Shown here piece after piece: positions 8,896 through 55,807 of a stretch of DNA of 64,000 nucleotides. The stretch is from a virus (taxonomy: Duplodnaviria > Heunggongvirae > Uroviricota > Caudoviricetes), in IMG/VR virus record IMGVR_UViG_3300012007_000007, positions 99,434-163,433 of that record. One strand, written 5' to 3'. Below the pieces are notes generated by a model, which saw nothing but the letters and a program-made list of their open reading frames with translations, was not told the DNA's origin and did no database searches. Every line of letters begins with the position of its first letter. Within the stretch, counting starts at the first letter, position 1. The translations under genes were made by a program, and so were the position numbers.

Positions 8896-9912
8896 ATGCC
8901 CAACGCAAACCTCAACAAGGCCAAGGCCGCCAAGAACGATGAATTTTATACCGTAATCGCGGACATTGAACGCGAAATGAACGCCTACTACGACCGCGAC
9001 CCGGATGTTTTCCGTGGCAAGACCATCCTCTGCCCGTGCGACGACCCGACTTGGAGCAACTTCACCAAGCACTTTACGCAGAACTTCGTCCGCTACGGCC
9101 TGAAGAAGCTCATCTGCACCGGCTACCACAAGGGCGGCAAGGGCATGAAGTATGTCCTTGAAGGCGACACGGACGGCAACGGCAAGGTCGAAGCAGCCGA
9201 CATCGTTGCTACCGAAATGGAAGGTGACGGCGATTTCCGTAGCGAGGAAGTCCAGGAACTGCTCGGAGAAGTGGACTTCATCATCACGAATCCCCCCTTC
9301 TCGCTCTTCCGCGAATTTATCGCTTGGATTATGGAACACGGGAAAAAGTTTGCAATTATCGGAACACAGAACGCCGTTTCTTGTTCCGAAGTGTTCAGTC
9401 TCATTAAGAGCAACCAAGTGTGGCTCGGTGCTACCGGGAACAACACCGACATGGTGTTCCGCGTTCCCGAAGGTGCCGAAATCAAGCCTTCCGACCGTGC
9501 CAAGGCAGAACGCCTGGGCTACAAGGGCAGCTATACCCGTCTCGGGAACAGCTGCTGGTTTACCAACATCGAACACGGCAAGCGTCATGAGTTCCTTGAC
9601 CTCTGCACCAAGGCACAGCTGAAGAAGCGCGGGGTGGAGTTCCCGAAGTATGACAACTACAGGGCCATCGAAGTGTCCAAGGGGGCATACATCCCCAAGG
9701 ACTACAAGGGGGTGATGGGCGTGCCCGTCACATGGCTGGACAAGTATAACCCGGAGCAGTTTGAAATTGTGGGCCTTGACGAAGCCCACGGCACCGGGAA
9801 CTCCAACGGGTTGTGGACGGGCGGCAACAAGAAGGCAACCATCAATGGAGAAGAAAAGTACGCCCGCCTCTTCATCAGGCACAAGCCCGCCACCGAAGAG
9901 GCCGACGCATAG
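8896..9912 (+). CDS. DNA N6-adenine (amino) methyltransferase, NPPF motif IV (338 aa)
   Basis: VDFIITNPPFSLFREF catalytic motif; paralog of CDS 12150..13115 (about 55-60% identity over the N-terminal 60 aa). Confidence 0.75.
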   Translation: MPNANLNKAKAAKNDEFYTVIADIEREMNAYYDRDPDVFRGKTILCPCDDPTWSNFTKHFTQNFVRYGLKKLICTGYHKGGKGMKYVLEGDTDGNGKVEAADIVATEMEGDGDFRSEEVQELLGEVDFIITNPPFSLFREFIAWIMEHGKKFAIIGTQNAVSCSEVFSLIKSNQVWLGATGNNTDMVFRVPEGAEIKPSDRAKAERLGYKGSYTRLGNSCWFTNIEHGKRHEFLDLCTKAQLKKRGVEFPKYDNYRAIEVSKGAYIPKDYKGVMGVPVTWLDKYNPEQFEIVGLDEAHGTGNSNGLWTGGNKKATINGEEKYARLFIRHKPATEEADA

Positions 9913-9986
9913 GAATCACGGAAAATTTTCTTAATTTTCCAAAACTATCACATAGAAGGACTATCAAACGGAAAGGAGACCCGACG

Positions 9987-11237
9987 ATGGAACCGACAAA
10001 ACTTTTTGAAATTTTTGAAGAAGTGGCCCACGCAGAACAGCGCCCGGGCGAAATGGTGTCCCGCTACGCCACAGTCAAAATCCGCGACCTCGTGGACGGG
10101 GCCATCTTCGATGCAGCCGAAAACAAGGGCCTCTATGCCCTTGACGGCCACATCATCGTTCAACCCAAATATCAGCGTTTCTACATCTACGGGGACGGCA
10201 AGCGCGATGTCAAGGTCATTGACTCCATCCTCAAGGGCCTCCCCATCGGCATGATTAGCCTCTATCTCCCCGGCGACCTCGCCCGTGACGGCAAGCCGAT
10301 GGCCGAAGTTTTGGATGGTCAACAGCGCCTCACCACAATCATCCGCTTCTGCACGGAGAAGTTCTCCGTGGATATTGACGGCAATCCGTTCAATTTCTAC
10401 GCCCTCCCGGAAGAAATCAAGGCCAAGATTCTTGACACGGAAATCCCGGTGAGCATCTGCGCCGGGGGCGAAAAGATGCGTAACGATTGGTTCAAGACCA
10501 TCAATATGCAGGGTGTCGCCCTCACGGACATGGAAATCCTCAACTGCGTCTATTCCGGCGAACAGGTGGAAGCCCTCAAGGAAAAGTTCTCCCATGTCAC
10601 CCCTTACCTTTCCAATGTTGCCCTGCAATACATCAAGGGCGACCCGATGCGCCAGGAAATCGAGGAAACCGCTATCAAGATGGTCTGCCCCGATGTGGAA
10701 GCCTACCTTGCCGAACACCGCCACGATGCCGATGTCTCCAAGGTGGAAGCCAAGTTCCACGCCGTCATTGACTGGGTGGACAGCATCTTCCCGGAATACT
10801 ACAAGGAAATGAAGGGATTGGAATGGGGTCGCCTCTATGACGAATACCACGAAAAATTCTTCAATTCCGAAGAATTGGGAAAGATTGTGGCCGACCTCAT
10901 GGCGGACGAGCATGTGACCGCCAAGAAGGGCGCATTTGAATACGCCTTGCAGAAGGCATCCGGGGCTGACCCCGACCTCTCCCTGCTCCATATCCGTCTG
11001 TTCGAGGAATCAACCAAGCGCACGGTATTCTCCCGCCAGACCCAAGAAGCCAAGGAAAAGGGCGAATCCAACTGCCCGATGTGCGTATTGGAGAACGGTG
11101 CTAACCGTGCCAAGCTCTACGGCATCAAGGAAATGGATGCCGACCACGCCTCCGCATGGTCGAAGGGTGGCGCTACGGACATTTCCAATTGCGTGATGCT
11201 TTGTGCCCATCACAACCGAATGAAGGGAAACCGCTAA
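9987..11237 (+). CDS. DUF262 (ParB-like nuclease N-domain) + C-terminal HNH endonuclease, GmrSD-like architecture (416 aa)
   Basis: DGQQRLTT motif; C-terminal CPMC...DHASAWSKGG...NCVMLCAHHN HNH motif; AAAGGAGA RBS. Confidence 0.7.
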   Translation: MEPTKLFEIFEEVAHAEQRPGEMVSRYATVKIRDLVDGAIFDAAENKGLYALDGHIIVQPKYQRFYIYGDGKRDVKVIDSILKGLPIGMISLYLPGDLARDGKPMAEVLDGQQRLTTIIRFCTEKFSVDIDGNPFNFYALPEEIKAKILDTEIPVSICAGGEKMRNDWFKTINMQGVALTDMEILNCVYSGEQVEALKEKFSHVTPYLSNVALQYIKGDPMRQEIEETAIKMVCPDVEAYLAEHRHDADVSKVEAKFHAVIDWVDSIFPEYYKEMKGLEWGRLYDEYHEKFFNSEELGKIVADLMADEHVTAKKGAFEYALQKASGADPDLSLLHIRLFEESTKRTVFSRQTQEAKEKGESNCPMCVLENGANRAKLYGIKEMDADHASAWSKGGATDISNCVMLCAHHNRMKGNR

Positions 11238-12149: not shown

Positions 12150-13115
12150 ATGCCCAACGCAAACCTCAACCGGGCGAAATCAGCCAAGAACGACGAATTC
12201 TACACGCTTCCAGCCGATGTTTCCCTGGAAGTATCGGCATACCTCCGCAGGAACCCCGACCTTTTCCGGGGAAAGTCCGTGCTCTGCCCCTGCGACGACC
12301 CGGACGACAGCGCGTTCGCGAGCCACTTCGCGGAACACCTGGGCGAATACGGGATAACCCGCCTGGTCTGCTCCTGCTACAACCGGGAATCCCACGGGAA
12401 GGTACGGGTCATAGAGAACGGTACTACCGTAGACTCCGAGCTCGAGGGCGACGGGGACTTCCGGGGGGAGGAGGTGGGACGGCTCATCGACGGCGCGGAC
12501 TTCGTGGTGACCAACCCCCCGTTCAGCCTGTTCAGGGACATCGTGGCCGTCCTGACGGCGAAAAATAAATTCTTTTCCCTGATAGGGAACCTCAACGCGA
12601 TAGGGTACAGCGAGATTTTCCCCCTTATAATGGAGAACCGCCTCTGGACGGGGGCCACCCACTTCAACACCGGGATGTACTTCCGCGTTCCCGGGGACTA
12701 CGAGTACGCACCCACCTACAAGTTCGACCGGGAGCGGGACGGCGTGAAGGTGATGCGCGTCCCGGCGACCTGCTGGTTCACCAACATAGACTTCGACTCA
12801 AGGCACGACACCCTGGAGCTCTCCTCCCGGGAAGCCCTGGAGAAGAAGGGGGTGTCGTTCCCGGTATATGACGACTACGACGCGATAGAGGTGTCGAAGG
12901 CGGTCAACATCCCGGGCGACTTCCCGGGGATAATGGGAGTTCCCATATCCTGGCTGGGCAAGTACAACCCGGAACAGTTCGAGATAGTGGGCATAGCCAA
13001 CCACGGCAAGGACAGCGAGTACGACCTGTTCGCCCCGAGCGTCCACGGGGAGACCGTGTACAAGCGGCTGCTCATCAGGCACCGGCATGCGCCCCAGGAT
13101 TCCCCCGTCCTCTAA
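12150..13115 (+). CDS. DNA N6-adenine methyltransferase paralog (321 aa)
   Basis: FVVTNPPFSLFRDI motif; N-terminus near-identical to CDS 8896. Confidence 0.75.
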   Translation: MPNANLNRAKSAKNDEFYTLPADVSLEVSAYLRRNPDLFRGKSVLCPCDDPDDSAFASHFAEHLGEYGITRLVCSCYNRESHGKVRVIENGTTVDSELEGDGDFRGEEVGRLIDGADFVVTNPPFSLFRDIVAVLTAKNKFFSLIGNLNAIGYSEIFPLIMENRLWTGATHFNTGMYFRVPGDYEYAPTYKFDRERDGVKVMRVPATCWFTNIDFDSRHDTLELSSREALEKKGVSFPVYDDYDAIEVSKAVNIPGDFPGIMGVPISWLGKYNPEQFEIVGIANHGKDSEYDLFAPSVHGETVYKRLLIRHRHAPQDSPVL

Positions 13116-14321: not shown

Positions 14322-14352
14322 CGGAACCGCATAACCTATGGAGGAAAGCATT

Positions 14353-22537: not shown

Positions 22538-22580
22538 CCCATTGGGGAACCTCCCGGTACCTGCCGGGAGGTTTTTGTTT
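22538..22580 (+). terminator. intrinsic terminator
   Basis: AACCTCCCGGTACCTGCCGGGAGGTT + tttgtttttc. Confidence 0.55.
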
Positions 22581-22800
22581 TTCTCCCGGGAAACCTCCCC
22601 GGAACCTCCCGGGAATTCCCGGGATTTTTTTCTTGTTCCCCCCGGGAACCTCCCACGGAATTCCTGCTTTCCCCCCGGGAACATCTCACGTAATTCCTGC
22701 TTTCCCCCCGGGAATCTCCCACGGAATTCCCGGGGTTTCCACCGGGAAACTCCCGGAAACCTCCCCGGGGCTTCCCGGGAATCCCGCGAAAAAATATTTT
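22560..22800. repeat. GC-rich tandem repeat tract (~38-bp units TTCCCCCCGGGAAnnTCCCACGGAATTCCTGCT, ~3 copies plus CCCGGGAA-type simple repeats)
   Basis: visible direct repetition; no credible ORF. Confidence 0.6.
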
Positions 22801-22858
22801 ATTTTTAACCCCGTGAGCCCAGCTCGGGAACGGTACCGGAAGGAAATGCCCCGCCGTC

Positions 22859-22905
22859 CTCTATCGGGACCGGGATGGGATGTCCAGGATTTTCCAGGTT
22901 TCCGG
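22859..22905 (+). promoter_or_regulatory. class-I element (palindrome mutated, CCCGGG to TCCAGG on both arms)
   Basis: CTATCGGGaccGGGATGGGATGTCCAGGATTTTCCAGG; no gene downstream. Confidence 0.4.
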
Positions 22906-22988
22906 CCCGTTTTCGCCATTTCCACATACCGGTCAGAGCAGTGTCCCCCGGGAGGTCCAGATGCTGGGAAGAACTGACCCCCGCCGCC

Positions 22989-23040
22989 CTCTATCGGGAC
23001 CGGGATGGGATGCCCGGGAGGACCTCCCGGATTCCCCCGG
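22989..23040 (+). promoter_or_regulatory. class-I element followed by a repeat tract instead of a gene
   Basis: CTATCGGGaccGGGATGGGATGCCCGGGAGGACCTCCCGG. Confidence 0.5.
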
Positions 23041-23340
23041 GTTCTCCAGGATGTTCCCGGGTTGCTCCCGGAGGCTCCCAGGTTGCTCCCGGAGCATTCG
23101 GGTTGCCTCCCAGGTTCCCCCAGGTTGCTCCCGGATTCCCCCGGGTTGCTCCCGGAGGCTCCCGGATTCCCCGGGTTGCTCCCGGGTTGCTCCCGGGAGG
23201 TTCCCAGGTTGCCCCCGGGGCATTCGGGTTGCCCGACATCGGGCTCCCCAGGTTCCCCCGGGTTGCTCCCGGGAGGTTCCGGGGAGGTTCCGGGAGTTAT
23301 CCGGGGGGTTCCTGGGAGGTTTCACGGAGTCCCGGGATGT
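23030..23340. repeat. degenerate 12-bp tandem repeat tract (GGTTGCTCCCGG-like, >15 units)
   Basis: read directly; the Pro/Gly-rich ORFs here (22875..23538) are judged spurious. Confidence 0.6.
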
Positions 23341-23852: not shown

Positions 23853-24488
23853 ATGATGGCGAGGGAATTTGCTTTGGGCGTACTGGTCCTGGCGGGGAGC
23901 GCCGTGTTCGGGGTGGAGCCGGGGCTTCCGGCGGGTTTCGACCTGAGCTGGAGGCCTATGGGAGCCAACACCGGGAAGCTGGTGGAGGACGTGGAGGCGG
24001 TATACGAGGACGGTGATGGCAAGGTGCGCTGCCAGTACATCAGGGGGGTGGACCTCCCGGCGGTCCGGGAGTACGGGGAGTGGGTGTGCCCGGCGGTGAC
24101 GCTGTGGCACATCCGGGAGGTGGACATAGAGCGTTTCGGGGGGAAGTGCGGCGGTCTGCTGTGCATGTACGACTACACGATGCCCGGGGACCTCCCGACC
24201 GCGACCACGGTGAAGCGGGTGGCGTGGTGCCCGGACGTGGTTGTGACCCGTCGGGAGGGGGGCTACCTGCGTATCCGTGGCGGGCTCCGATTCGGACGGG
24301 GTGACAGGCCCGAGCCGTACTACAACAGCGGGGTGATACCTATGAGTTTCCCCCTGGACCCGGAGCTTGCGGAGTGCGGCGGGGAGAACTACCGGGAGCA
24401 GCGGAGGTTCTGGCTGGAGGAGTTCAGCGCGCCGGGGTACGGCGTGAGGGAGGAGGCCGGGGAGACGGACAGCTGGGACGGGACCTAA
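23853..24488 (+). CDS. membrane-anchored protein (211 aa)
   Basis: ATGATG after GGGAGGATAGCCGC; N-terminal hydrophobic helix FALGVLVLAGSAVFG. Confidence 0.5.
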   Translation: MMAREFALGVLVLAGSAVFGVEPGLPAGFDLSWRPMGANTGKLVEDVEAVYEDGDGKVRCQYIRGVDLPAVREYGEWVCPAVTLWHIREVDIERFGGKCGGLLCMYDYTMPGDLPTATTVKRVAWCPDVVVTRREGGYLRIRGGLRFGRGDRPEPYYNSGVIPMSFPLDPELAECGGENYREQRRFWLEEFSAPGYGVREEAGETDSWDGT

Positions 24489-24530
24489 CGGGTCCGGGAT
24501 GGGATGCCCGGGAGGTCCGGGGAATTCCCA
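24483..24530 (+). promoter_or_regulatory. class-I element (last copy)
   Basis: CCTAACGGGtccGGGATGGGATGCCCGGGAGGTCCGGGGAATTCCCA. Confidence 0.55.
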
Positions 24531-24568
24531 GGGGTATGGGCGTGAACAGTAACAAGATGGAGGACATC

Positions 24569-25720: not shown

Positions 25721-25781
25721 CGGATTTATTTTTTTGATTTTTCGGATTTTCGAATTTCTACCCTCAAAAAGGAGAACTACC

Positions 25782-26396
25782 ATGGACAAGGAAACCTTAG
25801 CACAAATCAGTACAATCGTCGGCTCCAAGCGCATCGCGGAGGGGGCAGTGGCCTACCTCAGCATGTGCCGGGAGATACCGGACGAGGGGAAGGTGTGCAG
25901 GGCCCTCCACGTGAGCCCCCTCACAGCGAGGAAGATATGCGCCGTCGCCGCTCTCTCGGGCAAGTTCCTGCTCGACACGGTCCCGGTGCACGTGAACAAC
26001 CCGGCCCTGGTGGCGGGCTACCTGAGCGACCTGAAGTTCGCCCCCACGGAGCACGTGGTCGTCCTCAGCGTCGCTTCCGACAACACGCTCATCAAGCGCC
26101 ACGAGTGCTCGTCCGGCGCGAGCAACCGGGCCACGGTCGACCCCTGCACGGTGTTCAGCGGCCCGGTCCAGGACAAGGCGCGCTCCATCATCGTGGCCCA
26201 CAACCACCCGAGCGGAAGCGTCGAGTTCAGCAACTCCGACTACGACTTCACGGAACAGCTCGTGAAGGCCGGCCGCCTGCTGAACATCAGGGTCCTCGAC
26301 AGCATCGTAATCAGCCACCGCGGAATCAAGTCGATGCGTGCCGAACGCCCCGAGATGTTCGCCGAGCCGAAGCCCTCCCAGGAACCCAAGGCGTAG
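25782..26396 (+). CDS. RadC-like JAB/MPN-domain protein (204 aa)
   Basis: IIVAHNHPSGSVEFSNSDYDFTEQL (JAMM motif HxH...S...D); AAAAGGAGAA RBS. Confidence 0.7.
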   Translation: MDKETLAQISTIVGSKRIAEGAVAYLSMCREIPDEGKVCRALHVSPLTARKICAVAALSGKFLLDTVPVHVNNPALVAGYLSDLKFAPTEHVVVLSVASDNTLIKRHECSSGASNRATVDPCTVFSGPVQDKARSIIVAHNHPSGSVEFSNSDYDFTEQLVKAGRLLNIRVLDSIVISHRGIKSMRAERPEMFAEPKPSQEPKA

Positions 26397-26440: not shown

Positions 26441-26469
26441 GTTGACGGAGTTTTCAATTTTTATATTTT
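26441..26469 (+). promoter_or_regulatory. possible sigma70-like promoter upstream of the sigma-factor gene (TTGACG-16/17-TATTTT)
   Basis: good -35, weak -10 inside an AT-rich gap. Confidence 0.3.
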
Positions 26470-26557
26470 ATTTTTTGATTTTTCAAACAAACGGACAACT
26501 GACAACAATACAATAAGCCCTCCCGGGTACGGGAGGCGAGAACGGAGGAAATGGACC

Positions 26558-27334
26558 ATGGAGTTCGCCAAGGAGATATTCAAGAACGAGGTTCGGGCGG
26601 CATACCTAAGGGCATGCGGGATAATCACGAGCCCGGAAGTCGAGAACGCGCTCATAGCGAGGGCGAAGAGGGGGGACAGGGCGGCCAGGAACCTGCTTTT
26701 CGAGAAGCAGCTCCCTGCGCTGCTGGACATGGCGAACCACAGCAAGTACGGGGTGTACGGCGGGAACGCGTCGGAGCTGGTGTCCTCCGTGATGGGGATA
26801 ATGGACCGTGCTATAGAGCTGTTCGACCCGACGAGGGGTCTGCGGTTCTGGACGTTCCTGAGGAACCACGCGTTCAACGCGATGAACAAGGAGTCCTACG
26901 AGGACAGCCTCATCCACGTCCCGGAGAACTACGTGAAGGCCAACCGCCGCGGCGAGGTCGCCTCGGTGGAGTCCGGGGATACCGCCGTGGGCAAGAAGGA
27001 CGGGGTGACCGTGACCAGGTTCGACCTGATGGCCGGGGACGACGGCAACGAGACGGTCTTCGGCCGCCTGGTCGAGCGGGAGCAGGAGGGCATCGCCGGT
27101 AGGCTCCTGACCGCACTCGACAGGGACGAGCAGTACGTGGTGGAGAAGTGCTACCTGGAGGACGAGCCGGACGAAGCCGGGAATCCCGGGAGCAGGCCGT
27201 GGAGCGCCGCGTCGGTGGCGCGGTTCACCGGGAGTTCGAAGGAATGCATCAACCGTATCCGGAAGGCCGCCCTGGCGAAGATGCGGAAGGCACTGGACGC
27301 GGACAGGGACTGGTGCATCGACCAGAGCGTATAG
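26558..27334 (+). CDS. sigma-70 family RNA polymerase sigma factor (258 aa; regions 2 and 4 only)
   Basis: region 2 (RGDRAARNLLFEKQLPALLDMANHSKYGVY) and region 4 HTH (SVARFTGSSKECINRIRKAALAKMRK); ACGGAGGAAATGGACC RBS. Confidence 0.65.
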   Translation: MEFAKEIFKNEVRAAYLRACGIITSPEVENALIARAKRGDRAARNLLFEKQLPALLDMANHSKYGVYGGNASELVSSVMGIMDRAIELFDPTRGLRFWTFLRNHAFNAMNKESYEDSLIHVPENYVKANRRGEVASVESGDTAVGKKDGVTVTRFDLMAGDDGNETVFGRLVEREQEGIAGRLLTALDRDEQYVVEKCYLEDEPDEAGNPGSRPWSAASVARFTGSSKECINRIRKAALAKMRKALDADRDWCIDQSV

Positions 27335-27356
27335 GCGGGATTTAATTTTTATTTTT

Positions 27357-27374
27357 GGTTTTAACCGTGCTTCC
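27357..27374 (+). promoter_or_regulatory. class-II motif GTTTTAACCGTGCTTCC
   Basis: 4 copies (27357, 27641, 28100, 29584), each 30-120 nt upstream of a plus-strand gene start. Confidence 0.45.
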
Positions 27375-27414
27375 AAAACGAGGACTTAAAACTTAACAGC
27401 TATGGAGCAACATC

Positions 27415-27612
27415 ATGCCAAACATTGCAAGGAAACGCGAGCGTAAGCGCGTGAAGAAGCTGCGCAGTATTGAAAAGGCCAGGAAGGCCCGGAACCGCCT
27501 GCTTAATTGCCGCGCCAAGTGGCCGGAAGGGATGGATGCGCTGATGTCCGCCGCGTGGGACCCGCAGGTGTCCCTGCTGTATCATCACATCCCGGAGGAT
27601 ATTAGGGAATGA
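27415..27612 (+). CDS. small basic protein (65 aa)
   Basis: ORF track; ATGGAGC leader. Confidence 0.5.
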   Translation: MPNIARKRERKRVKKLRSIEKARKARNRLLNCRAKWPEGMDALMSAAWDPQVSLLYHHIPEDIRE

Positions 27613-27640
27613 GCCAGTTCGACCTGGACAATAAGATTAA

Positions 27641-27656
27641 GGTTTAACCGGGCTTC
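27641..27656 (+). promoter_or_regulatory. class-II motif (GGTTTAACCGGGCTTCC)
   Basis: variant copy. Confidence 0.4.
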
Positions 27657-27797
27657 CAATGAGACGAGGTAAAGCCGAATACCCGGACCTTCCGCGGTTC
27701 GACCGCATCGCCAACTTTGAACCGGAAATCTTCGACAATGCAGAAACTCTTTACAACCTGAAAGGTGCACAGGAAGCACTTAAAAAGGAGCCCACCA

Positions 27798-28106
27798 ATG
27801 AAGACATTTAAGTTCATAAAAGCGCTATATATCGCCGCATACCTCGGAATCATCGCGCTTGCAATTTTCAAGATTGTAAGCAAGGTCAATGGTTGTCTCT
27901 GCGACAAGTGCAAGGAGAAGCGTCCGCTGTTCGAGTCTGCCGAGAAGAGCAATGAAGCTGACCGCATGCTGACTATACGTGGTGGCTCCGGTATACAATA
28001 TGACCACTCCGTCATCTTGACCTCGGAAAATTCAGGCTGGCGCCGCAAAGAATTGAACTTCTTCGTCGGCGAGCCCAACATCGGCAAGAAGGTGCTGGCG
28101 GTTTAA
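27798..28106 (+). CDS. membrane protein with CxxC pair (102 aa)
   Basis: AAAAAGGAGCCCACC RBS; TM helix; CDKCKEK. Confidence 0.5.
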   Translation: MKTFKFIKALYIAAYLGIIALAIFKIVSKVNGCLCDKCKEKRPLFESAEKSNEADRMLTIRGGSGIQYDHSVILTSENSGWRRKELNFFVGEPNIGKKVLAV

Positions 28107-28116
28107 CCGTGCTTCC
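28100..28116 (+). promoter_or_regulatory. class-II motif
   Basis: GGTTTAACCGTGCTTCC, overlaps the stop codon of the previous gene. Confidence 0.45.
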
Positions 28117-28146
28117 GGCACAATAATTTAAAAGGAGAAATGCCAT

Positions 28147-28404
28147 ATGACGTTCTTTGAGATGGAAGGATATAAAGAGGGCGAACGCTATCCAGAATGC
28201 ACCGTTCGTTATACCACGTTCAAGGGAGCTGTCGAACATTTGTCCCGCTCCGTTGGGGGTCTCGGACACCTGTCCAGAGTGGTTGTATACTACGTTGGCC
28301 AGGCGCATCCTAGCGCCAAGCTCATCAGGCTTTCTAAATGGATGGTGTCATCCCGAAAGCTGTGTAAATTTATCTTGAACAATTGCCCGTTTATTGAGGA
28401 ATAA
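28147..28404 (+). CDS. hypothetical protein (85 aa)
   Basis: AAAAGGAGAAATGCCAT RBS. Confidence 0.5.
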   Translation: MTFFEMEGYKEGERYPECTVRYTTFKGAVEHLSRSVGGLGHLSRVVVYYVGQAHPSAKLIRLSKWMVSSRKLCKFILNNCPFIEE

Positions 28405-28416
28405 GGAAAAATCCGT

Positions 28417-28776
28417 ATGTTAAAAGACGGCAGATTTGGTAATAATCACGAATTTCTCGATGCATTGGCCGAGTTGGACCCGACTACGAAAATCCGCAGT
28501 GAATGCGATTCGCTTCATTATGACTATGTGTTCAAGTTGAAATCTGGAAGGACGTATCTAGCGGGAGACTTCAACTTTACACCGGGATTGTCCGTGTGCG
28601 AAGTACAAAATCTGTGGGGTGACAGGAAGATTGGCGAACCTGTACCGTGTACCCTCGAAACCCTTAAAAAGATTACTTCCGAACCAGCAAATACCGTCAA
28701 ATATTATGGTCCTAAGATTGGTACGGTTATAACCCAGTTTGACCGCGACCAAGACAAGAATATTGCTGGATACTGA
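28417..28776 (+). CDS. hypothetical protein (119 aa)
   Basis: ORF track. Confidence 0.5.
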   Translation: MLKDGRFGNNHEFLDALAELDPTTKIRSECDSLHYDYVFKLKSGRTYLAGDFNFTPGLSVCEVQNLWGDRKIGEPVPCTLETLKKITSEPANTVKYYGPKIGTVITQFDRDQDKNIAGY

Positions 28777-28818
28777 TATGACCGAGAAGGAAATCCCAGA
28801 AACACAAGGAAATTAAAA

Positions 28819-29088
28819 ATGCTATTGGAAGCCGTGCGTCATGAAACATTTGAAAAAGAAGGCCTGGTCAAGTACTATGACCGCCAGGACCGCATCGTGG
28901 AAATTTCATTCGTTCAATCGGGAAACGGCTGTACTATCCAGTACATTGAGCCACCCGTGCACGTAGGGGCGCAAACAAAGGAACGAGTGGTTCGATGGAG
29001 TAACGGGCAAGTGTATCGAACCTGGGTTGATGACGAAGGCAAAACAAAGTTCGTGAGGCTGAAGGATGAACAAGACTGGCACTATTGA
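28819..29088 (+). CDS. hypothetical protein (89 aa)
   Basis: ORF track. Confidence 0.5.
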   Translation: MLLEAVRHETFEKEGLVKYYDRQDRIVEISFVQSGNGCTIQYIEPPVHVGAQTKERVVRWSNGQVYRTWVDDEGKTKFVRLKDEQDWHY

Positions 29089-29314
29089 TGACAACACCAA
29101 TTCGAGCTGGAACGCATTCGTGACATATAACATGGCCGATGTGATGATGCTGAAACGATTGGAAGAATTTGCATACATGCAATGGCTGGCCGAACTGAAG
29201 CGTCGCTGGGGTATCTTCTGGCGCATCCCGTACTGGTGGCACCACGGCAGACATCCCGTACAACATATAACAAAAATTAATATTGGGTTAAAAGAAAGAA
29301 GGGAAGTTATATGA
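29066..29314 (+). CDS. hypothetical Trp-rich protein (82 aa)
   Basis: ORF track; overlaps neighbours by a few codons. Confidence 0.4.
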   Translation: MNKTGTIDDNTNSSWNAFVTYNMADVMMLKRLEEFAYMQWLAELKRRWGIFWRIPYWWHHGRHPVQHITKINIGLKERREVI

Positions 29315-29589
29315 TTATTCGGGACAAGAATGGCACTGAGCGCATCGCGATGGCGTCCGATTTCCAGGATGCTACCATTACATTCACTCCAGCCGAATGG
29401 AATGAACTGCATGACATATTCTGCTTCTATAAAAAGAAAATAAAACCGAACGAGTTCGCCAAGATTAACCAGCCAATCCTGGAAAAACTGGAAGCCAACC
29501 AACCGGTGCTTAAAGACGGCTACGAAAAGGTCCGGGACGGATGGCCTTCAATATCAAACGAACAAATATCAAACGAACAGGATGTTTAA
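29311..29589 (+). CDS. hypothetical protein (92 aa)
   Basis: ORF track; AGAAGGGAAG RBS. Confidence 0.5.
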   Translation: MIIRDKNGTERIAMASDFQDATITFTPAEWNELHDIFCFYKKKIKPNEFAKINQPILEKLEANQPVLKDGYEKVRDGWPSISNEQISNEQDV

Positions 29590-29599
29590 CCGTGCTTCC
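29584..29599 (+). promoter_or_regulatory. class-II motif
   Basis: TGTTTAACCGTGCTTCC. Confidence 0.45.
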
Positions 29600-29640
29600 G
29601 AAACAATGCGTTAAAAGCAACAATAAATACAGGAGTAGAT

Positions 29641-29916
29641 ATGATTAAACTGAGAGAATGGACAGCCAGCGAGATTGAAGAATATGATGACGCAAGGCTA
29701 GAACGTGCGGAAGACGGCAAGATTGCCTGCACCAGAGTGTATATCAAACCCGAAGTAGATGAATTAATATCGACTATTATGGCAGAGAAAGACAAGGCGA
29801 TTGCGGACTTGAAAGAAAGTCACAGGCAGAAAGTCAATCAACTTCTTGTGCAGATTGAAGACCTTGAACGGCGAGTGTATCGGGCAAATCGCGATGCACG
29901 GCGTACCCGCTACTAG
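29641..29916 (+). CDS. hypothetical coiled-coil protein (91 aa)
   Basis: ACAGGAGTAGAT RBS. Confidence 0.5.
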   Translation: MIKLREWTASEIEEYDDARLERAEDGKIACTRVYIKPEVDELISTIMAEKDKAIADLKESHRQKVNQLLVQIEDLERRVYRANRDARRTRY

Positions 29917-29990
29917 AGTACGTGGGCCGAACACATGAAACTTATAATATAATTTTCCAAAGAGCCAAGATAAAACAAAGGTTAATCATC

Positions 29991-30212
29991 ATGGCAGAAA
30001 GAGAACATTTCACCAAGGAACAGCTCCTTGAACAGTGCAAGAACGCGAAGCCCACTCCGGGAAGCAACCTAATGGGCTGTAGCGAATCGTGGTACGACCC
30101 GTTCTTCTGCTTGCAGCAAATCTTTACCGAGGGCGAACTCGGCGCCATGACAGAACAGGAACTGAACAACCTGTACCGTCTGGCCGACGAATTGACCCGC
30201 ACATTTTACTAG
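29991..30212 (+). CDS. hypothetical protein (73 aa)
   Basis: in-frame ATG of ORF 29922..30212. Confidence 0.45.
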   Translation: MAEREHFTKEQLLEQCKNAKPTPGSNLMGCSESWYDPFFCLQQIFTEGELGAMTEQELNNLYRLADELTRTFY

Positions 30213-30220
30213 GAGGAAAT

Positions 30221-30511
30221 ATGGAAACCCGTGAACAGAACGTTGATTGTCCGCTGTGCAAAGGTGAAACAATTCAGCCGTACGAAACCGTGTATGACCA
30301 CCATGGGCATTCAATTGGATTGAGGTCTGAAGTGAAATGGCGGCTAGACGGAACTACCCTCAATCAACTGGTTCATGCCGAATATATAACCAACAATGAT
30401 TTGCACTATGATGAAGACTTCACGCCTGAGCTGAGCTATTGCATTCCGGTTCAGGTAAGCCATTGCCCATACTGCCAACGCAAGTTGACCGAGACACCGG
30501 GAGATAACTAA
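30221..30511 (+). CDS. zinc-ribbon protein (96 aa)
   Basis: CPLCKG ... CPYCQRK; AGGAGG RBS. Confidence 0.5.
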   Translation: METREQNVDCPLCKGETIQPYETVYDHHGHSIGLRSEVKWRLDGTTLNQLVHAEYITNNDLHYDEDFTPELSYCIPVQVSHCPYCQRKLTETPGDN

Positions 30512-31035
30512 TGACTGAGCCGTTCTCATTCAAGCAGAAACAGCTGATATGCGTCAACAAGCGGGACTTCGAGCGAATTTGCCGGGACGAGGGGTGGTCG
30601 GACGACAACCCGCCCACGGATGCCGCGCTCATCTCGATATGCTGCAACGCGGAGGTCGCGAAGTGGGTCCTGTCCGACGGCGACAGGCACTTCTTCTCGT
30701 CGGACCACGACAACGTCCTCAACGTCGAGTTCGACGACGTCACCGAGGACGTCAAGGTGTTCGACGGAGACGAGTACGGGTTTCCCGGGAAAATCACCGC
30801 TAGGGGGATAACCCCGGAGACTGCCGAGAAGGTGGTCAGGTTCATCGAAGGGCACAGGGGGATGGATTTCCTCATCCACTGCCGGGCGGGCAAGTCGAGG
30901 TCCCAGGCAGTGGTCCGGTACGTGCTGGACTTCTACGAAGGCCCATTCCAGACTAACCAGAGCAATCCGTGCCGGTTCTACAACACCCACACCTACACTG
31001 CGCTGAGGAAGGCCCGGGAGAGGCTCGGTCTGTAG
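30511..31035 (+). CDS. dual-specificity / protein-tyrosine phosphatase (CX5R P-loop) (174 aa)
   Basis: HCRAGKSRSQAVV signature (HC-X5-R-S). Confidence 0.65.
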   Translation: MTEPFSFKQKQLICVNKRDFERICRDEGWSDDNPPTDAALISICCNAEVAKWVLSDGDRHFFSSDHDNVLNVEFDDVTEDVKVFDGDEYGFPGKITARGITPETAEKVVRFIEGHRGMDFLIHCRAGKSRSQAVVRYVLDFYEGPFQTNQSNPCRFYNTHTYTALRKARERLGL

Positions 31036-31494: not shown

Positions 31495-31585
31495 TCTCCA
31501 CCTCCGTGCAAATTTGCTATATTTGGTGTACGGGCAATTCCGCCCGTACATTTACATTTACATTATACACACAAAGGAATACCGC

Positions 31586-34790: not shown

Positions 34791-34876
34791 GGTGCCTACC
34801 GGTGCAAAGATAGCCTTTTTCACCAGCTGCCGATGCTATAAACTAGATGCAAACGACTTTAGACTTGGAGTATCCA

Positions 34877-46302: not shown

Positions 46303-47562
46303 TTAATCTGTCCTCACGGTATTGTCGAACAGTTCCTTTATCTTCGGTACGGCCAGGCACATGAGTTTTTCCCATTTCGGCCCGTCGTCCTTCCCGAATC
46401 CCTTCTTCGCCTGTTCCTTCCTGCGCTCCGCCTCGGCATTGGCCGGGCGCACCTTCGTGTAGTACAGGCTGCTCACAACCTCTTCCGGACACAGGTACAG
46501 GAACTTGTAGATGTTCAGCCCGTATGCCTTCGCCTTGTCCGACGGCCCGCTGTGGAACTCGTTCCACATGACATCCTCGTTCCTCGCCGTCAGGTCCATC
46601 AGTTCCTCGCCCAGGGCGGTCAGGCCGGGTATGTCCACCTTCGCCATGCGTTTCAGCTCGGCGACCATCTTCCCCTTGGTGGACCAGTCGGCATCGGAGC
46701 CGAACAACAACTTGTCGGCAGTAATACCGCTCAGGTTGTTCTTGAAGTTATAGTAGAAACGCACGAACCTCCCGGCGACCCCGACTCCCACCCGTCCGGC
46801 GACCAGCGCGTACAGGAAGTTCTCGGCATCGTCGTACAGCCTCATGTCGAACCGGGACTTGCCGGTCCCGCGGAAGTTCTCCCCGCGGGTGATGTGTTTC
46901 CCGAGAATATGGAACTGCCTGCGGCATGGCAGGACGTGGTGGTAGTACTGTCCCTTGGCCTCGTTAACGTTCGACTCGTTCTTGAAGGTATCGAGGTCAT
47001 CCGGGTGCTGCCTGATGTATTCGCGTATCACCGCGGGAACTCCTTCCTCGGCGGCATACGCAAGCCATTCGTCCACGGTGGGCTCCAGCTGCATCACCTG
47101 GAACCTGGCCCGGTGGGCCGGGTCCATCTCGATTACCTGGTAGAGGTTTCCGAACTCCGGGTTTATCGCAGCCATCACGTAGCTGCCGTCCGGGAGAACC
47201 AGGTCGCCCACGCGGTGGTCGGTCGCGAGTCGCATCAGCCCCTTCATCACGGTCTTGTTCCTGTTCACCTCGTCGAGAAGCAGGACGCACTTCGTATCCG
47301 GCCCGAGATACCAGGATGGCGGCTTGTACACCGTCCTCCCGCTGTCGAAGTCGGGAAGCCCGAACACGTCGACCATGTCCGTGTTCTCGGACACCTGTAT
47401 CACGCAGAACGGCAGCTTCACTATGTCGTCCGCGAAGTGCCTGGATATCGTAGTCTTTCCTATGCCGGTGTCGCCCTCGAGCAGCACCGCCGATTCCGAC
47501 CCGCACACTTCCATCATGTCATAGAACTGTGCGAAACTGATTCCCTTTCTTTCAGTAATCAT
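46303..47562 (-). CDS. MoxR/CobS-like AAA+ ATPase (419 aa)
   Basis: Walker A LLEGDTGIGKTT, Walker B CVLLLDEVNR, sensor AAINP. Confidence 0.7.
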   Translation of the reverse strand: MITERKGISFAQFYDMMEVCGSESAVLLEGDTGIGKTTISRHFADDIVKLPFCVIQVSENTDMVDVFGLPDFDSGRTVYKPPSWYLGPDTKCVLLLDEVNRNKTVMKGLMRLATDHRVGDLVLPDGSYVMAAINPEFGNLYQVIEMDPAHRARFQVMQLEPTVDEWLAYAAEEGVPAVIREYIRQHPDDLDTFKNESNVNEAKGQYYHHVLPCRRQFHILGKHITRGENFRGTGKSRFDMRLYDDAENFLYALVAGRVGVGVAGRFVRFYYNFKNNLSGITADKLLFGSDADWSTKGKMVAELKRMAKVDIPGLTALGEELMDLTARNEDVMWNEFHSGPSDKAKAYGLNIYKFLYLCPEEVVSSLYYTKVRPANAEAERRKEQAKKGFGKDDGPKWEKLMCLAVPKIKELFDNTVRTD

Positions 47563-47570
47563 ACCAAAAA

Positions 47571-47586
47571 CAAATGTAGCAAAATG
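47571..47586 (-). promoter_or_regulatory. class-III motif variant (TTTTGCTACATTTG)
   Basis: only ~10 nt upstream of ATG 47562. Confidence 0.35.
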
Positions 47587-47622
47587 AAGATGCCCCGGAA
47601 CCGGTCCGGGGCGTTTTCGCCG

Positions 47623-47907
47623 CTATTTCTTGTATATCCGTCGCATCACCAGCAGCCCCGTCGTCAGTATCGTCGCTACCGTGTAGTTGAAGTACAGCGG
47701 CCACTGCCATTCCCCGGTCACGCAGTTGGTGTACAGGACGAAAGCGCAGCTTCCGAGGTTACCTACGTAGGCCAGCGCGAAGAACCCGTACGATAGCCCG
47801 GTATCCTTCTTCTTCCACGCCTTGCGGACCTGAGGGGCCAGGTTGAATGCGAATGCCACCGCACCCGCACCTCCCAGAAGCCAGAACAGAATCCCTACCG
47901 CGTCCAT
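47623..47907 (-). CDS. PQ-loop / SemiSWEET-like small membrane protein (94 aa)
   Basis: 3 TM helices; PQVRKAWKKKDTGLS motif. Confidence 0.4.
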   Translation of the reverse strand: MDAVGILFWLLGGAGAVAFAFNLAPQVRKAWKKKDTGLSYGFFALAYVGNLGSCAFVLYTNCVTGEWQWPLYFNYTVATILTTGLLVMRRIYKK

Positions 47908-49154
47908 CAGCCCGCCTTGATTTCCCCCACGAGTTTATCGAACCACTCCCGCGTCATCTGCCGCCTGTCCTTGCGATGGCGGTACACGGCCAGCCGGAGC
48001 TTTCTGAGCGTATGTCCAAACTCCTTGCCCTGCTTCACGCCGGCATCGAGCAACGCCCTCGTCATGTCCTTCATTGTGGGCCACTCGGTCGCGTGCTCCC
48101 GCAGCTTTATCTCGTCCGTCCGAGAAATTACCAGGTAGCCCTGTCTCGAGAACACGTAGGCCCTGAACAGTTCCCATCGGTCGTCGGTAACCAGGTCGAC
48201 AAGGTCTACAAGGTCGAGCGTACCGGCGAGGTACTTCTTGAATCTTTCGGTAATATACTCGACGTTCCTCGCGTCCTCCCTGGTGCACTTCAGGGCCTGC
48301 ATCGAGTACTTGTCCGGGAGTATCAGCGGGAACAGGTATTCGGGCTTCCACTGCACGTCACTACCCAATGTCGCGCACGCCGTAGCCAATCTTGCAATGC
48401 ACTGTCTGGCAAAGTCCCAGTCGATATTCAGGCCAGTTCCCTTCCCGATGTCCCATGACGCCATCCAGCCGAGCATCGCGGCGACCTGCTGCACTCCGTA
48501 CTCGGCACACTTGGCAAGCTCGTCGTGAATCCTTTCCTTCGATATGTTGGCCAGCCTCGGCGCAAGCACCCTCGCGGCATTCAGCGTGGCAACATCTATC
48601 TTCATGCCGAAACGAGCGGCGAACCGGCACATCCTCACTATCCTTAGCGCGTCCTCGGTGAACCGCTCGGTAGCATCGCCGACGGTCCGCAGGTGGTTCT
48701 TCGTAATTGATTCAACGCCGCCGTGGTAGTCGACCACACGGTAATCGCCGTCCAGTCCCATTGCATTGGCGGTGAAGTCCCTTCTCGCCGAATCCTCCTC
48801 AAAGCTCCCGGCCCACTCTACGCTATCCGGGTGCCGTCCGTCGGTATAGTCCCCGTCCTTCCTGAACTGGGTCACCTCGAACATCGTGTCCTTCCACTCG
48901 ACCAGCACGGTACCGTGCGCCTCGCCGTTGTTGCTCTCGCACCTGAACGCCTTCTTCAGCTCCTCGATTGGCATGTTGGTCGCTATGTCCACGTCGTGTA
49001 TGCCGGGATGCTTCTCCAGCCCCAGCTCCCAGCGGACAAGGTCCCTCACGCAGCCCCCGGCAAGGAGTGCGTCATATCCGTGTTTACCAATCTCCCTGAC
49101 TAAACCGAGCCCCTTCTCGACGAGGGGGATGGTCCTTGCGTTCAATATAATCAT
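47907..49154 (-). CDS. tRNA nucleotidyltransferase (CCA-adding enzyme / poly(A) polymerase head + HD domain) (415 aa)
   Basis: GGCVRDLV ... HDVDIAT nucleotidyltransferase motif; C-terminal HD-like LRIVRMCRFAARFG. Confidence 0.7.
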   Translation of the reverse strand: MIILNARTIPLVEKGLGLVREIGKHGYDALLAGGCVRDLVRWELGLEKHPGIHDVDIATNMPIEELKKAFRCESNNGEAHGTVLVEWKDTMFEVTQFRKDGDYTDGRHPDSVEWAGSFEEDSARRDFTANAMGLDGDYRVVDYHGGVESITKNHLRTVGDATERFTEDALRIVRMCRFAARFGMKIDVATLNAARVLAPRLANISKERIHDELAKCAEYGVQQVAAMLGWMASWDIGKGTGLNIDWDFARQCIARLATACATLGSDVQWKPEYLFPLILPDKYSMQALKCTREDARNVEYITERFKKYLAGTLDLVDLVDLVTDDRWELFRAYVFSRQGYLVISRTDEIKLREHATEWPTMKDMTRALLDAGVKQGKEFGHTLRKLRLAVYRHRKDRRQMTREWFDKLVGEIKAG

Positions 49155-49168
49155 TTGGCCAGAATCCT

Positions 49169-49184
49169 TTCGAGTTGCGCAAAT
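49169..49184 (-). promoter_or_regulatory. class-III motif variant (TAAGCTAGATTTGCGC)
   Basis: ~30 nt upstream of ATG 49154. Confidence 0.35.
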
Positions 49185-49189
49185 CTAGC

Positions 49190-50974: not shown

Positions 50975-50988
50975 TCTGCGGGAATCAA

Positions 50989-51306
50989 TCAAAACACTTT
51001 CCTGTATGGCTGAATTGTGTACTGCACCCTGCGTGTTCCGATTCCCGGCCGTCCGCCGGAATAGTATACCTCGCTCTCGATTGCGGCCACCCTTCCCGGA
51101 TACAATTTCTTGTTTCCCCTGACGGCCCTCACGGCGCGCTCGAACATCGGCTCGTAGTCGTAATCCTTGTATCCCGGGTATGTCTTGACCGGCTGGTACC
51201 AGATTGTAACCCCGCGCCTGCGGTGGCATTTCCATCCGAAAGTAATCTGGCGCAGCCTATTGCTTATAGCATTATGGAAAAGTATTCTCTTTATCTTGTT
51301 CAGCAT
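50989..51306 (-). CDS. hypothetical protein (105 aa)
   Basis: AAGGAAAGACTAT RBS; internal ATG (residue 20) of ORF 50989..51363. Confidence 0.45.
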   Translation of the reverse strand: MLNKIKRILFHNAISNRLRQITFGWKCHRRRGVTIWYQPVKTYPGYKDYDYEPMFERAVRAVRGNKKLYPGRVAAIESEVYYSGGRPGIGTRRVQYTIQPYRKVF

Positions 51307-54852: not shown

Positions 54853-54946
54853 TTGTTACTCCGATGTATTGAAGTTGATAGATTTCATTTTTCAGCAGCA
54901 CGTTGGGTTAACATACCCAAACAATATCTATTCCGGATGCGTGTAG

Positions 54947-55029
54947 CGGAAGGCGAGGGACTCGAACCCCCAAGCGTTTTACCGCGGCGGATTTCAAGTC
55001 CGCTGACTTACCAGTTAGCCTAGCCTTCC
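54947..55029 (-). tRNA. tRNA-Ser (anticodon UGA), long variable arm
   Basis: hand-folded cloverleaf; acceptor GGAAGGC/GCCTTCC; anticodon loop CTTGAAA; T-loop GGTTCGAGTCC. Confidence 0.65.
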
Positions 55030-55036
55030 TGTTTCC

Positions 55037-55225
55037 CTAGTAGTGGGCGTGCGAAGAGAGAAGTTCAGCCTTCTCCCTCTCCATGCGCTCCCTCTGCCGG
55101 GCAAGCTTCTTGATGTCTATTCCGCAGGACTTGGCCATGCTCCTGGCCTTCTTCTGCTGCTTGGCCCAGCGGGCCTGCTTCTGCTCCTCGGTTTCCTCCG
55201 GGAGCTCTTCCCTGTGCTTCTTCAT
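55037..55225 (-). CDS. small Lys/Glu-rich protein (62 aa)
   Basis: ORF track. Confidence 0.4.
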   Translation of the reverse strand: MKKHREELPEETEEQKQARWAKQQKKARSMAKSCGIDIKKLARQRERMEREKAELLSSHAHY

Positions 55226-55233
55226 ATGTCCCC

Positions 55234-55701
55234 CTAGTCGTTCACCCCGACGACCACAATCTCGTCTTCGGTAAAATACTCGTTAAGTTTGTCCCTGTTG
55301 GCCTGCATAGTGTTCCACATGCGCTCGACCACGTCAATAGGAACCTTGCGCTCCCTGCCTTCCATTCTCCGCATGGCGACCTCGGGCGGAATGTCGAACC
55401 AGTAGGCCCTGGACATTGAGCCGGCCGGGCAAAGGCCCAGGTAGGTCCTCCAGTCCCTCACGTGGATATTGGTGGCGTCGCACACCACGTCGCCGCGCAG
55501 CATGCCCTCCGATACCCTAGAACGGAATATGGCGAATACCTTGGAATCCAGCTCCGGGTAGAGGTATTCCTCCGTACCGGTCAGTTCCTTCCGGATTCCA
55601 TCGGACGACACTACGGTAGCCCCGGTAGATTCCGCGAGCTTCCTCCCGTACGTAGACTTGCCGCACCCGGGAATGCCTATGAGAAGATGCAGAGTATTCA
55701 T
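55234..55701 (-). CDS. polynucleotide 5'-kinase (T4 Pnk kinase-domain-like P-loop kinase) (155 aa)
   Basis: GIPGCGKST Walker A; RKVPIDVVERMWNTM closely resembles T4 Pnk KAVPIDVLRSMYKSM. Confidence 0.65.
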   Translation of the reverse strand: MNTLHLLIGIPGCGKSTYGRKLAESTGATVVSSDGIRKELTGTEEYLYPELDSKVFAIFRSRVSEGMLRGDVVCDATNIHVRDWRTYLGLCPAGSMSRAYWFDIPPEVAMRRMEGRERKVPIDVVERMWNTMQANRDKLNEYFTEDEIVVVGVND

Positions 55702-55719
55702 CTGATTGTTCCTTTTTAG

Positions 55720-55792: not shown

Positions 55793-55807
55793 GTGTGTTA
55801 AATTTAG

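Follow-up and report, generated by a model that had tools for sequence, protein, structure and literature searches.

A divergent sigma-70-family factor in a huge-phage sequence and the promoter classes that it may read

Introduction

Phage expression programmes have their classic switch in phage-encoded sigma factors. These are known in large phages, and the presence of such a gene in another large phage is in itself no surprise. In SPO1 (gp28) and phiEco32 (gp36), an early sigma factor made by the host RNA polymerase (RNAP) redirects the core enzyme to two-part phage promoters, and T4 gp55 and SPO1 gp34 switch on late genes. T4 gp55 is a minimal sigma factor that lacks the sigma4 domain and needs gp33 and the sliding clamp; the T4 late promoter reads TATAAATA. 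Here we describe a sigma-factor gene of 258 codons plus stop at positions 26558-27334 (+ strand) of a 64-kb stretch of a tailed-phage sequence, positions 99,434-163,433 of the IMG/VR record IMGVR_UViG_3300012007_000007, to which we refer as the window. An earlier note on this DNA had placed the gene at the boundary of early and middle genes, behind the last element of a repeated motif family termed class I, and had called its product the obvious reader of class I or of two further families, classes II and III.

Sigma factors are also established in large and jumbo phages, including the 'group 2' jumbo phages (PMC7824862), whose near-complete, sigma-70-like proteins (PHROG_351) are presumed to recruit the host core RNAP. 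The window protein resembles these factors, whereas it belongs to a separate small family without a match among GenBank phages, and its host is probably a member of Bacteroidota or an allied phylum. No RNA polymerase gene has been seen so far in the sequence of this phage. By analogy, the window protein would follow the same logic as SPO1 gp28 and phiEco32 gp36; unlike them, it has promoters that are far longer and GC-rich, its timing is inferred, and it shares no detectable similarity with either. Were its target the -10-only motif TATAAACT described below, which resembles the T4 late promoter, the protein would recall T4 gp55, from which it differs by having a complete sigma4 domain. Among bacterial proteins, the group-3-type sigma factors (RpoS, RpoH and the sporulation factors SigK and SigE) provide the best sequence and fold matches, have a similar size (~230-290 aa) and likewise combine regions 1.2, 2.1-2.4, 3.0 and 4.1-4.2 with the lack of region 1.1. 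In contrast to them, the phage protein scores below all family cut-offs, has a linker of ~50 aa in place of the sigma3 domain, has the QE..N residues of region 2.2 and the tryptophan pair of region 2.3 replaced, carries an insertion in sigma4 and a conserved tail, and belongs to a family found in no bacterial genome searched. The literature held nothing specific on the motifs described here or on this phage group.

Results

Identity and architecture of the sigma factor

The open reading frame (ORF) runs from the ATG at 26558 to a stop codon at 27332-27334. Although many spurious ORFs occur in the surrounding DNA of ~60% G+C, the coding signal of the sigma ORF is strong (G+C of 0.59, 0.42 and 0.90 at the first, second and third codon positions), the ratio of nonsynonymous to synonymous changes (pN/pS) is 0.30 relative to the 95% identical orthologue on contig L014, and 25 full-length homologues with 48-100% identity can be aligned without frame breaks. 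The gene is therefore real and under purifying selection. A GGAGG Shine-Dalgarno sequence (26544-26548) is located 9 nt upstream of the ATG and follows a 5'-leader hairpin, CCCTCCCG-GGTA-CGGGAGG (26518-26536), so that the leader element as a whole spans 26518-26548 (+). The hairpin folds no better than shuffled sequences (z = -0.56), which leaves its function unproven.

Comparison with sequence and structure libraries placed the product in the sigma-70 family, although the curated domain models alone would not have done so. As a single sequence, the protein stayed below the Pfam cut-offs both for Sigma70_r2 (17.4 bits against 24, aa 64-102) and for Sigma70_r4 (14.3 bits against 24.1, aa 184-244), and did not reach the membership score of the NCBIfam model TIGR02937 (24.6 against 42.9). 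The NCBIfam models of RpoS, SigK and RpoH matched over aa 12-248 (aa 25-248 for the SigK models) with every score far under its cut-off, and a few homologues do have precomputed PF04542 or PF04545 matches. Meanwhile, PHROG_351, annotated as 'RNA polymerase sigma factor', matched aa 25-246 with E = 2.8e-14, and a family profile built from the 25 homologues matched 47 distinct sigma sequences in the PDB, RpoS being the best (E = 5.6e-8) and SigA and RpoD being among the others, in sigma2 and sigma4 alike. For sigma2, profile positions aa 25-129 aligned with RpoS 81-184 (regions 2.1-3.0; independent E-value of this stretch 1.9e-4), and a single-sequence search gave the alignment to RpoS with E = 8.7e-5. 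For sigma4, aa 148-246 aligned with RpoS 238-328; this match is weak alone (9 bits) and agrees with the results from PHROG_351, the SigK models, the AlphaFold2 (AF2) model and Foldseek.

The AF2 model has a mean predicted local distance difference test score (pLDDT) of 76, exceeding 80 in both domains, and a predicted template modelling score (pTM) of 0.45. When this model was compared with the PDB by Foldseek, all 50 listed matches were sigma factors, led by sigmaS (2e-7) and followed by sigma32, SigA and SigB, and none was an anti-sigma factor, the fold that the earlier note had named as speaking against its own proposal. The template modelling scores were low (0.3-0.4), probably reflecting that neither domain has a fixed position with respect to the other. 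The description of the 258-aa product as a sigma-70-family protein with regions 2 and 4 is thus upheld, since regions that are sub-threshold in Pfam are supported by PHROG_351, the PDB profile and the structural neighbours. Assignment to the extracytoplasmic function (ECF, group 4) factors was ruled out by the presence of region-1.2-like and region-3.0 helices, the sub-threshold TIGR02937 score and the best matches, which fall in groups 2 and 3. We are highly confident that the protein is a bona fide, very divergent phage sigma-70-family factor.

The domain layout was set by alignment to RpoS and sigma-70. Region 1.1 is absent, and the protein begins with a region-1.2-like helix (aa 2-23, 26561-26626; aa 2-22 in the AF2 model) with conserved K9, R13, Y16 and A19; by inspection, we take the succession of VR..YL.. 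and GD..AR..L to be the region 1.2/2.1 layout. The sigma2 domain (regions 2.1-2.4, aa 25-115, 26630-26902), delimited by the RpoS alignment and Pfam, keeps RG.RFWTF, a motif like that forming the pocket for the -11A base, together with an invariant AMNKE. It is followed by a region-3.0-like helix, L.H.PEN..K (aa 118-128, 26909-26941), which aligns with IRLPIHVVKE of RpoS and is invariant even in a clade with ~30% overall identity. The poorly conserved linker of ~50 aa (aa 129-180, 26942-27097) that stands in place of the sigma3 domain has low pLDDT and variable alignment columns and contains a predicted beta-hairpin (strands within 143-153). The sigma4 domain (regions 4.1-4.2, aa 184-246, 27107-27295; AF2 helices within 167-250), supported by Pfam and by the profile alignment to RpoS 238-328, carries the recognition helix SSKECINRIRKAAL and has an insertion of ~10 aa ahead of its helix-turn-helix (HTH). 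At the C-terminus is a conserved tail, DRDWCIDQSV (aa 247-258, 27296-27331). Two cysteines, C198 in region 4.1 (codon 27149-27151, within KC[YF]) and C253 in the tail (codon 27314-27316, within DWC), are both nearly invariant and could form a disulfide or a metal site.

Rumen and gut metagenomes yielded homologues on phage contigs of 117-472 kb, and others are on viral contigs of IMG/VR. No family member was present among 185,579 bacterial and archaeal species genomes, and a tblastn search of 50,697 GenBank phage records, which include those encoding SPO1 gp28 and gp34, T4 gp55 and phiEco32 gp36, gave no match at E<=1e-3. In the data searched, the family is restricted to huge-phage contigs. 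It is small, with 13 clusters (50% identity) at E<=1e-30 and 67 at 1e-10 among 1.84 billion representatives, and beyond E = 1e-10 it merges with the general sigma-70 superfamily. A second clade with ~30% identity (L010, L016 and L019) keeps the block NAMNKE.Y.D.....PEN..K unchanged. Each locus, including the window, contains a single sigma paralogue, and the synteny is kept: a one-strand block of small genes leads to an FtsK-like ATPase gene, usually to RadC, and then to the sigma gene at the distal end, downstream of which the strand usually switches.

The control region of the sigma gene

The last class-I copy (24482-24545, +) does lie upstream of the sigma gene, as the earlier note had it, but at a distance of 2 kb, where it serves the gene of the FtsK-like protein and that of RadC. 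An AT-rich gap of 160 nt separates RadC from the sigma gene and contains a promoter-like site belonging to the latter, TTGACG-N16-TATTTT (26442-26469, +), overlapping the hexamer TATATT (26462-26467). In every close relative, the DNA upstream of the sigma gene has TATATT at the corresponding position; the hexamer is preceded by a terminator-like hairpin in L002, L003 and L011, and the sequence at this position in L141 is TTTTTGTATATTTAA. The predicted sigma promoter is of host type and belongs to the same family as class III (see below), and transcription of the sigma gene appears to be uncoupled from class-I transcription. Since its own TATATT-core promoter is present in all close relatives, the sigma gene is probably transcribed early, by host RNAP.

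Promoter-like classes of the window

Class I comprises 36 copies on the + strand, from 95 to 24497, each of which precedes a gene. The element is ~65 nt long, and many copies are preceded by a GC hairpin with a T-run terminator. Its consensus consists of box A (TCTAWCGGG), four unconserved nucleotides, box B (GGATGGGATGCCCGGGA), a CCCGG palindrome and box C (TTTCCCAt, in which the A is invariant). The spacing is rigid: the start of box B is 31 nt from CCA, implying a spacer of ~17-18 nt, and the start codon is ~30 nt downstream. If the invariant A is set at -11, box B would extend from -44 to -28 and box A from -57 to -49, which is a sigma-70-like geometry with an extra upstream site.

The same multi-box layout with diverged boxes was found in every sigma-carrying relative for which upstream sequence was available, the ~30%-identity clade included. 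The elements read CCACCGGG - CCGGGGGATGC - ~19 nt - GGATAC in L005, L009 and L143, CCACCTGGT - CGACGGGGGGAG - nATAnn in L007, and CCACCGTGT - CAGGGRGGT or AGGGCGGGACGG - third box in L002, L003 and L011; that of L144 contains CCCCCGGACGGTCCGGGGGATGG, and those of L010 and L016 read ACCGTGTA - ~21 nt - GGACCTGGGGGAT..ATCGTA. Nearly all of these elements have the G-rich core GGGGGA(T) in common. On the 260-kb contig L008, at least 16 exact copies occur on one strand across five stretches totalling ~35 kb, and those inspected sit before small ORFs without an assigned function. Judged from these sequences, class I is a lineage-specific, fast-evolving, promoter-like class and likely depends on a phage-specific reader. 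Two other interpretations of the element were rejected. The consensus has a GG-to-GC spacing of 9-10 nt instead of the 11-12 nt of sigma-54-type promoters, and the 36 copies show no compensatory changes at variable positions that would indicate an RNA element; an Rfam scan of the window matched only tRNAs. Within the class-I block, dense short-period CCCGG-rich repeats (22580-23310) with 10-11-nt units such as CCCGGGTTGCTCCCGG include three 33-nt repeat units at 22636-22734, and similar tracts are present in L005 (3007-3511).

Class III has ten window sites matching TGCTA[TC]ATTT, the one nearest to the sigma gene being a predicted host-type promoter (TTGCTATATTTG, 31514-31525, +). The sequence TGCTATATTTG occurs 9-10 times in the window, where 0.1 occurrences would be expected, and each close relative has 1-5 copies. 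Relatives with sigma factors of 45-60% identity carry it unaltered; in the ~30%-identity clade it is rare. The primary sigma factor of Bacteroidota recognizes a -7 element, TAnnTTTG (T-12, A-11, T-8, T-7, T-6 and G-5), and the -33 element is weak or absent (PMC7366714, PMC6847099). The class-III motif is an exact instance of TAnnTTTG, and no -35 box is enriched at its sites (16% against a background of 10%). When the 14-mer TTTTGCTATATTTG was searched for in GTDB genomes, about 33 of the 80 matches listed were from Bacteroidota (Alistipes, Rikenellaceae, Cryptobacteroides and metagenome-assembled genomes of rumen Bacteroidales, several of them high in G+C), and in all 21 matches inspected the 14-mer was located shortly 5' of an ATG, in several only 4-5 nt away. 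The matches listed from an IMG/VR scan were mostly single and probably due to chance, two contigs being useful. In L051, which has no similarity to the window over the 12.5 kb examined, the motif is used three times, each time 5 nt from the ATG, accompanied by a -35-like TTGACT; L089 resembles the window in that class III drives tRNA genes and genes of nucleic-acid metabolism.

Because the motif is exactly TAnnTTTG and the same 14-mer precedes start codons in Bacteroidota, class III is, as far as its sequence indicates, most likely read by the host primary sigma factor. In the simplest reading, we infer that the class-III genes and the sigma gene form the early set transcribed by the host holoenzyme. 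The earlier note had by implication placed the class-I block among the early genes; given the host-type promoters of the sigma and class-III genes, these are the likelier early set, and the class-I block likely depends on a phage factor. The host-type promoters suggest a Bacteroidota-like host, and the mRNAs of Bacteroidota have no Shine-Dalgarno sequences (PMC6847099). About 60% of the phage genes behind class-I or class-III sites show GGAG or GAGG 4-18 nt 5' of the ATG (e.g., 14330-14350 and 26544-26548). As a clue to timing, this site is uninformative, with 62% for class I and 59% for class III. This leaves two readings, a host from an allied phylum with Shine-Dalgarno sequences or a phage that alters the choice of ribosomal start sites; the host is probably in Bacteroidota or such an allied phylum.

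Class II, GTTTAACCGTGCTTCC, has five matches against 0.6 expected, and four of them (27359, 27642, 28101 and 29584) lie in a low-GC island (27359-29599, +) directly 3' of the sigma gene. Two of the four overlap the stop codon of the preceding gene. The region at 27340-30540 is an island of small ORFs, with a G+C content of 0.44-0.47 at 28-30 kb, and represents a hypervariable cassette site. In L014 most of the island has given way to a different insert of ~1.15 kb. Single class-II-like copies are found 0.6-0.8 kb 3' of the sigma gene in L014 and in L015 of the distant clade, and class II is absent from L002, L003, L005, L007, L008, L009, L011, L143 and L144, in all of which sigma is conserved. 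Since the motif sits in a variable island and is absent in most relatives, the conservation of sigma is not owed to it, and class II is not the main sigma target.

A further promoter-like motif, (T)ATAAACT (TATAAACT), which was not among the families of the earlier note, lies 20-45 nt 5' of start codons at four window sites: 34837-34844 (+) before a gene for a charged, helical protein of 336 aa, 7061 (+), 31042 (+) before an NlpC/P60 hydrolase gene, and 39901 (-) before the gene of a 246-aa protein. It is kept before orthologous genes, including those of the 336-aa protein, in at least eight relatives (L002, L003, L005, L007, L008, L009, L141 and L143), the flanks being unconserved. The motif is unlike the host consensus, and the TAAACT that it contains fits TAnnnT. 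In L005, L007, L141 and L143, the 336-aa gene is adjacent to the sigma gene or one small gene away from it, and in most relatives the palindrome AATCATGATT or AATCGCGATT, which could be an operator, lies 3' of the promoter of the 336-aa gene. The motif is a serious alternative or additional target of the sigma factor, possibly marking a late class.

Candidate targets of the sigma factor

Our overall model, to which we give only slightly less credence than to its negation, is that the protein is a genuine initiation factor with a host-type promoter of its own and redirects host RNAP, most likely to class I. Unmodified host RNAP would transcribe the sigma gene from its TATATT-core promoter; the product would bind the host core enzyme and redirect it to phage promoters that the host primary sigma factor cannot read, and the host sigma factor itself would read class III. 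At class I, the G-rich box (GGGATGCC or GGGGGAT) would serve at about -35 and the invariant-A box (CCCAT, GGATAC or nATAnn) at about -10, and the third box, upstream at about -50, may be bound by another factor. The -10-only TATAAACT promoters might be read by the same sigma2 domain, or be the target instead of class I. Class I is favoured because a factor with both sigma2 and sigma4 suits a two-part promoter better than a -10-only one, because one host and one phage sigma factor are the most economical account of the two main classes, because every examined genome with upstream sequence has both sigma and class I, because the host-type promoter of the sigma gene is separate from class I, and because the rigid spacing and invariant A of class I suit a sigma-type promoter and each locus has a single sigma paralogue. 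We therefore regard class I as the best single candidate, a choice that we make tentatively. More tentative still is the proposal that the sigma factor and the ~65-bp, three-box element are a private, fast-evolving pair that switches on single-gene units over at least 25-35 kb as one regulon. Of the three families among which the earlier note had sought the obvious target, then, class I stays plausible without support from covariation, class III is of host type and class II is confined to a variable island, and (T)ATAAACT has to be added.

Several observations weigh against this model. No covariation was detected between the sigma4 recognition helix (the equivalents of R586, R588 and Q589) and box B: the residues Y-R-N are found in both L143 and L007, whose B boxes differ, whereas L143 and L005 have the same one. 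An apparent S/N difference between L005 and L007 is contradicted as covariation by L143, which has N and yet an L005-type box B. The block of regions 2.4-3.0 is invariant in the family while the -10-like box C of class I varies between genomes, which is mild evidence against class I as the target. Class I also carries ~35 or more conserved nucleotides, far above what a sigma factor alone needs, so that at least one further protein, or another polymerase, is probably involved there. The sigma gene of the distant clade follows immediately on a class-I-like promoter, an arrangement that under our model would require self-activation with no visible trigger. The structural (late) genes and their promoters are outside the window, and a late target is possible. 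As for the protein itself, the core-binding residues QE..N of region 2.2, which here reads ELVSSVMGIM, are replaced by S/A residues, and N103-H104 stand in place of the W433/W434 pair of E. coli sigma-70, with F100 corresponding to Y430. These replacements lower the certainty about core RNAP binding, which is a prediction from sequence, and about the mode of DNA melting.

A competing explanation, unlikely in our view but not lightly dismissed, is that the sigma factor, made early, turns on a later class whose mark is the -10-only (T)ATAAACT, in the manner of T4 gp55 or SPO1 gp34 at late genes, with targets (capsid, tail and lysis genes) mostly outside the window, and that class I is read by something else, such as a polymerase or factor delivered with the virion. 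It would account for the retention of the motif before orthologous genes in the window and eight relatives in otherwise unconserved DNA, and a TAnnnT-type sequence unlike that of the host is what would be expected of a sigma2 domain with the -11A pocket motif RG.RF.TF. The invariance of the motif also parallels that of regions 2.4-3.0, and the class-I-like promoter of the distant-clade sigma gene would be expected if class I precedes sigma. However, just three exact copies occur in the 64 kb against 0.58 expected, a number reached in 3 of 100 shuffles; a -10-only promoter leaves unexplained why a complete sigma4 domain with a conserved HTH has been retained; and an additional reader of class I would be required. 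It is considerably less probable that the phage protein replaces the host primary sigma factor on class III, e.g., after inactivation of the latter, and also activates its own class-III-like promoter. Huge phages that target the host sigma-70 gene while carrying a sigma factor of their own have been reported (PMC7162821), which sets a precedent; the 11-nt motif with its extended -10-like TGC is as invariant as the AMNKE...PEN..K block, and the TATATT core is common to the promoter of the sigma gene. Against this stand the exact agreement with the host consensus, the presence of the same 14-mer before ordinary Bacteroidota genes, the use of the motif with TTGACT by the dissimilar phage contig L051, and the rarity of class III in the ~30%-identity clade despite its unchanged region 2.4-3.0 block; moreover, a phage factor would be redundant because the host sigma factor would already read class III.

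The two remaining explanations are less probable again. That the protein has a sigma fold without an initiation role, titrating core RNAP or a host factor as a decoy or serving as a plain DNA-binding regulator, would agree with the loss of the region-2.2 core-binding residues and the region-2.3 tryptophan pair, with Pfam and NCBIfam scores that all fall under the curated cut-offs and with the modest pTM. We consider it very improbable, since the full layout (1.2, 2.1-2.4, 3.0 and 4.1-4.2) is kept, conservation of the -11A pocket motif and of the HTH extends over the identity range of 30-100%, and every listed structural neighbour is a bona fide sigma factor. Hardly credible, finally, is a sigma factor dedicated to class II, for which the four copies directly 3' of the gene, their excess over expectation and the single like copies in L014 and L015 would speak: nine relatives conserve sigma without the motif, the island is replaced next to a 95% identical sigma factor, two copies overlap stop codons, and the conservation of the factor cannot be explained by a regulon that consists of one to four small genes of a cassette.

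Other features of the window

The 64-kb window contains 13 tRNA genes, a CRISPR array with a Cas12-type gene, a methylase gene and GmrSD-like genes, and no structural genes. The tRNA cluster (54946-60208, -) has a class-III-like TTGCTATATTTA at 60440, just upstream of its first gene. The CRISPR array (60735-61562) comprises 13 repeats of 35-36 nt (GTGTAGTCACCCCTCAAAATGGGGGTGGGTCCACC) with spacers of ~31 nt and an extra degenerate copy near 60670; it adjoins an ORF of more than 767 aa (61576 to beyond 64000, -) that is open at the window end and has a Cas12f1-like TNB domain (Pfam, 1.5e-8). Together, the array and the ORF are a compact phage-borne system of Cas12 type. Among the class-I-driven genes are those of a GmrSD_N+HNH protein resembling type IV restriction enzymes (9813-11237, +) and an EcoRI-type adenine methyltransferase (12150-13115, +), the latter also found in L143. 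A class-III-driven group (46303-51235, -) encodes an AAA_5 (MoxR-like) ATPase, a nucleotidyltransferase of the poly(A)-polymerase/CCA-adding type and a DUF2201 metallopeptidase; the AAA_5 ATPase is also present in L008, and the same kinds of nucleotidyltransferase and phosphoesterase occur in L089.

In several relatives, insertion elements of the IS605/TnpB and serine-recombinase types lie near the sigma region (L005 1-1104, L141 3389-4660, L142 2623-3951 and L009 18978-19562). A PHROGs search with the large genes beside sigma in L002 and the window gave nothing informative. AT-rich repeats of the TTTTAATTTTTGAWTTTTC type are present at 25734-25790, 26450-26490 and 27340-27358 of the window, at 8022, 9224 and 10784 of L002 and at 11111 of L010. 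In several genomes the FtsK-like, RadC and sigma genes, and genes adjoining them, have such repeats just 5' of their ribosome-binding sites, and the repeats may be leader or translation elements.

Discussion

The value of the locus lies in its setting: a divergent sigma factor, a host-type promoter class, a composite promoter in 36 copies and a conserved -10-only motif are found together in one window. The transcription programme of an uncultivated huge phage thereby becomes testable in vitro, for which host core RNAP, the single protein and four short templates would do. If the link to class I is true, the sigma factor and its element would constitute an orthogonal sigma/promoter pair for Bacteroidota-type hosts, in which both the promoters (TAnnTTTG) and the translation signals, without Shine-Dalgarno sequences, are quite different.

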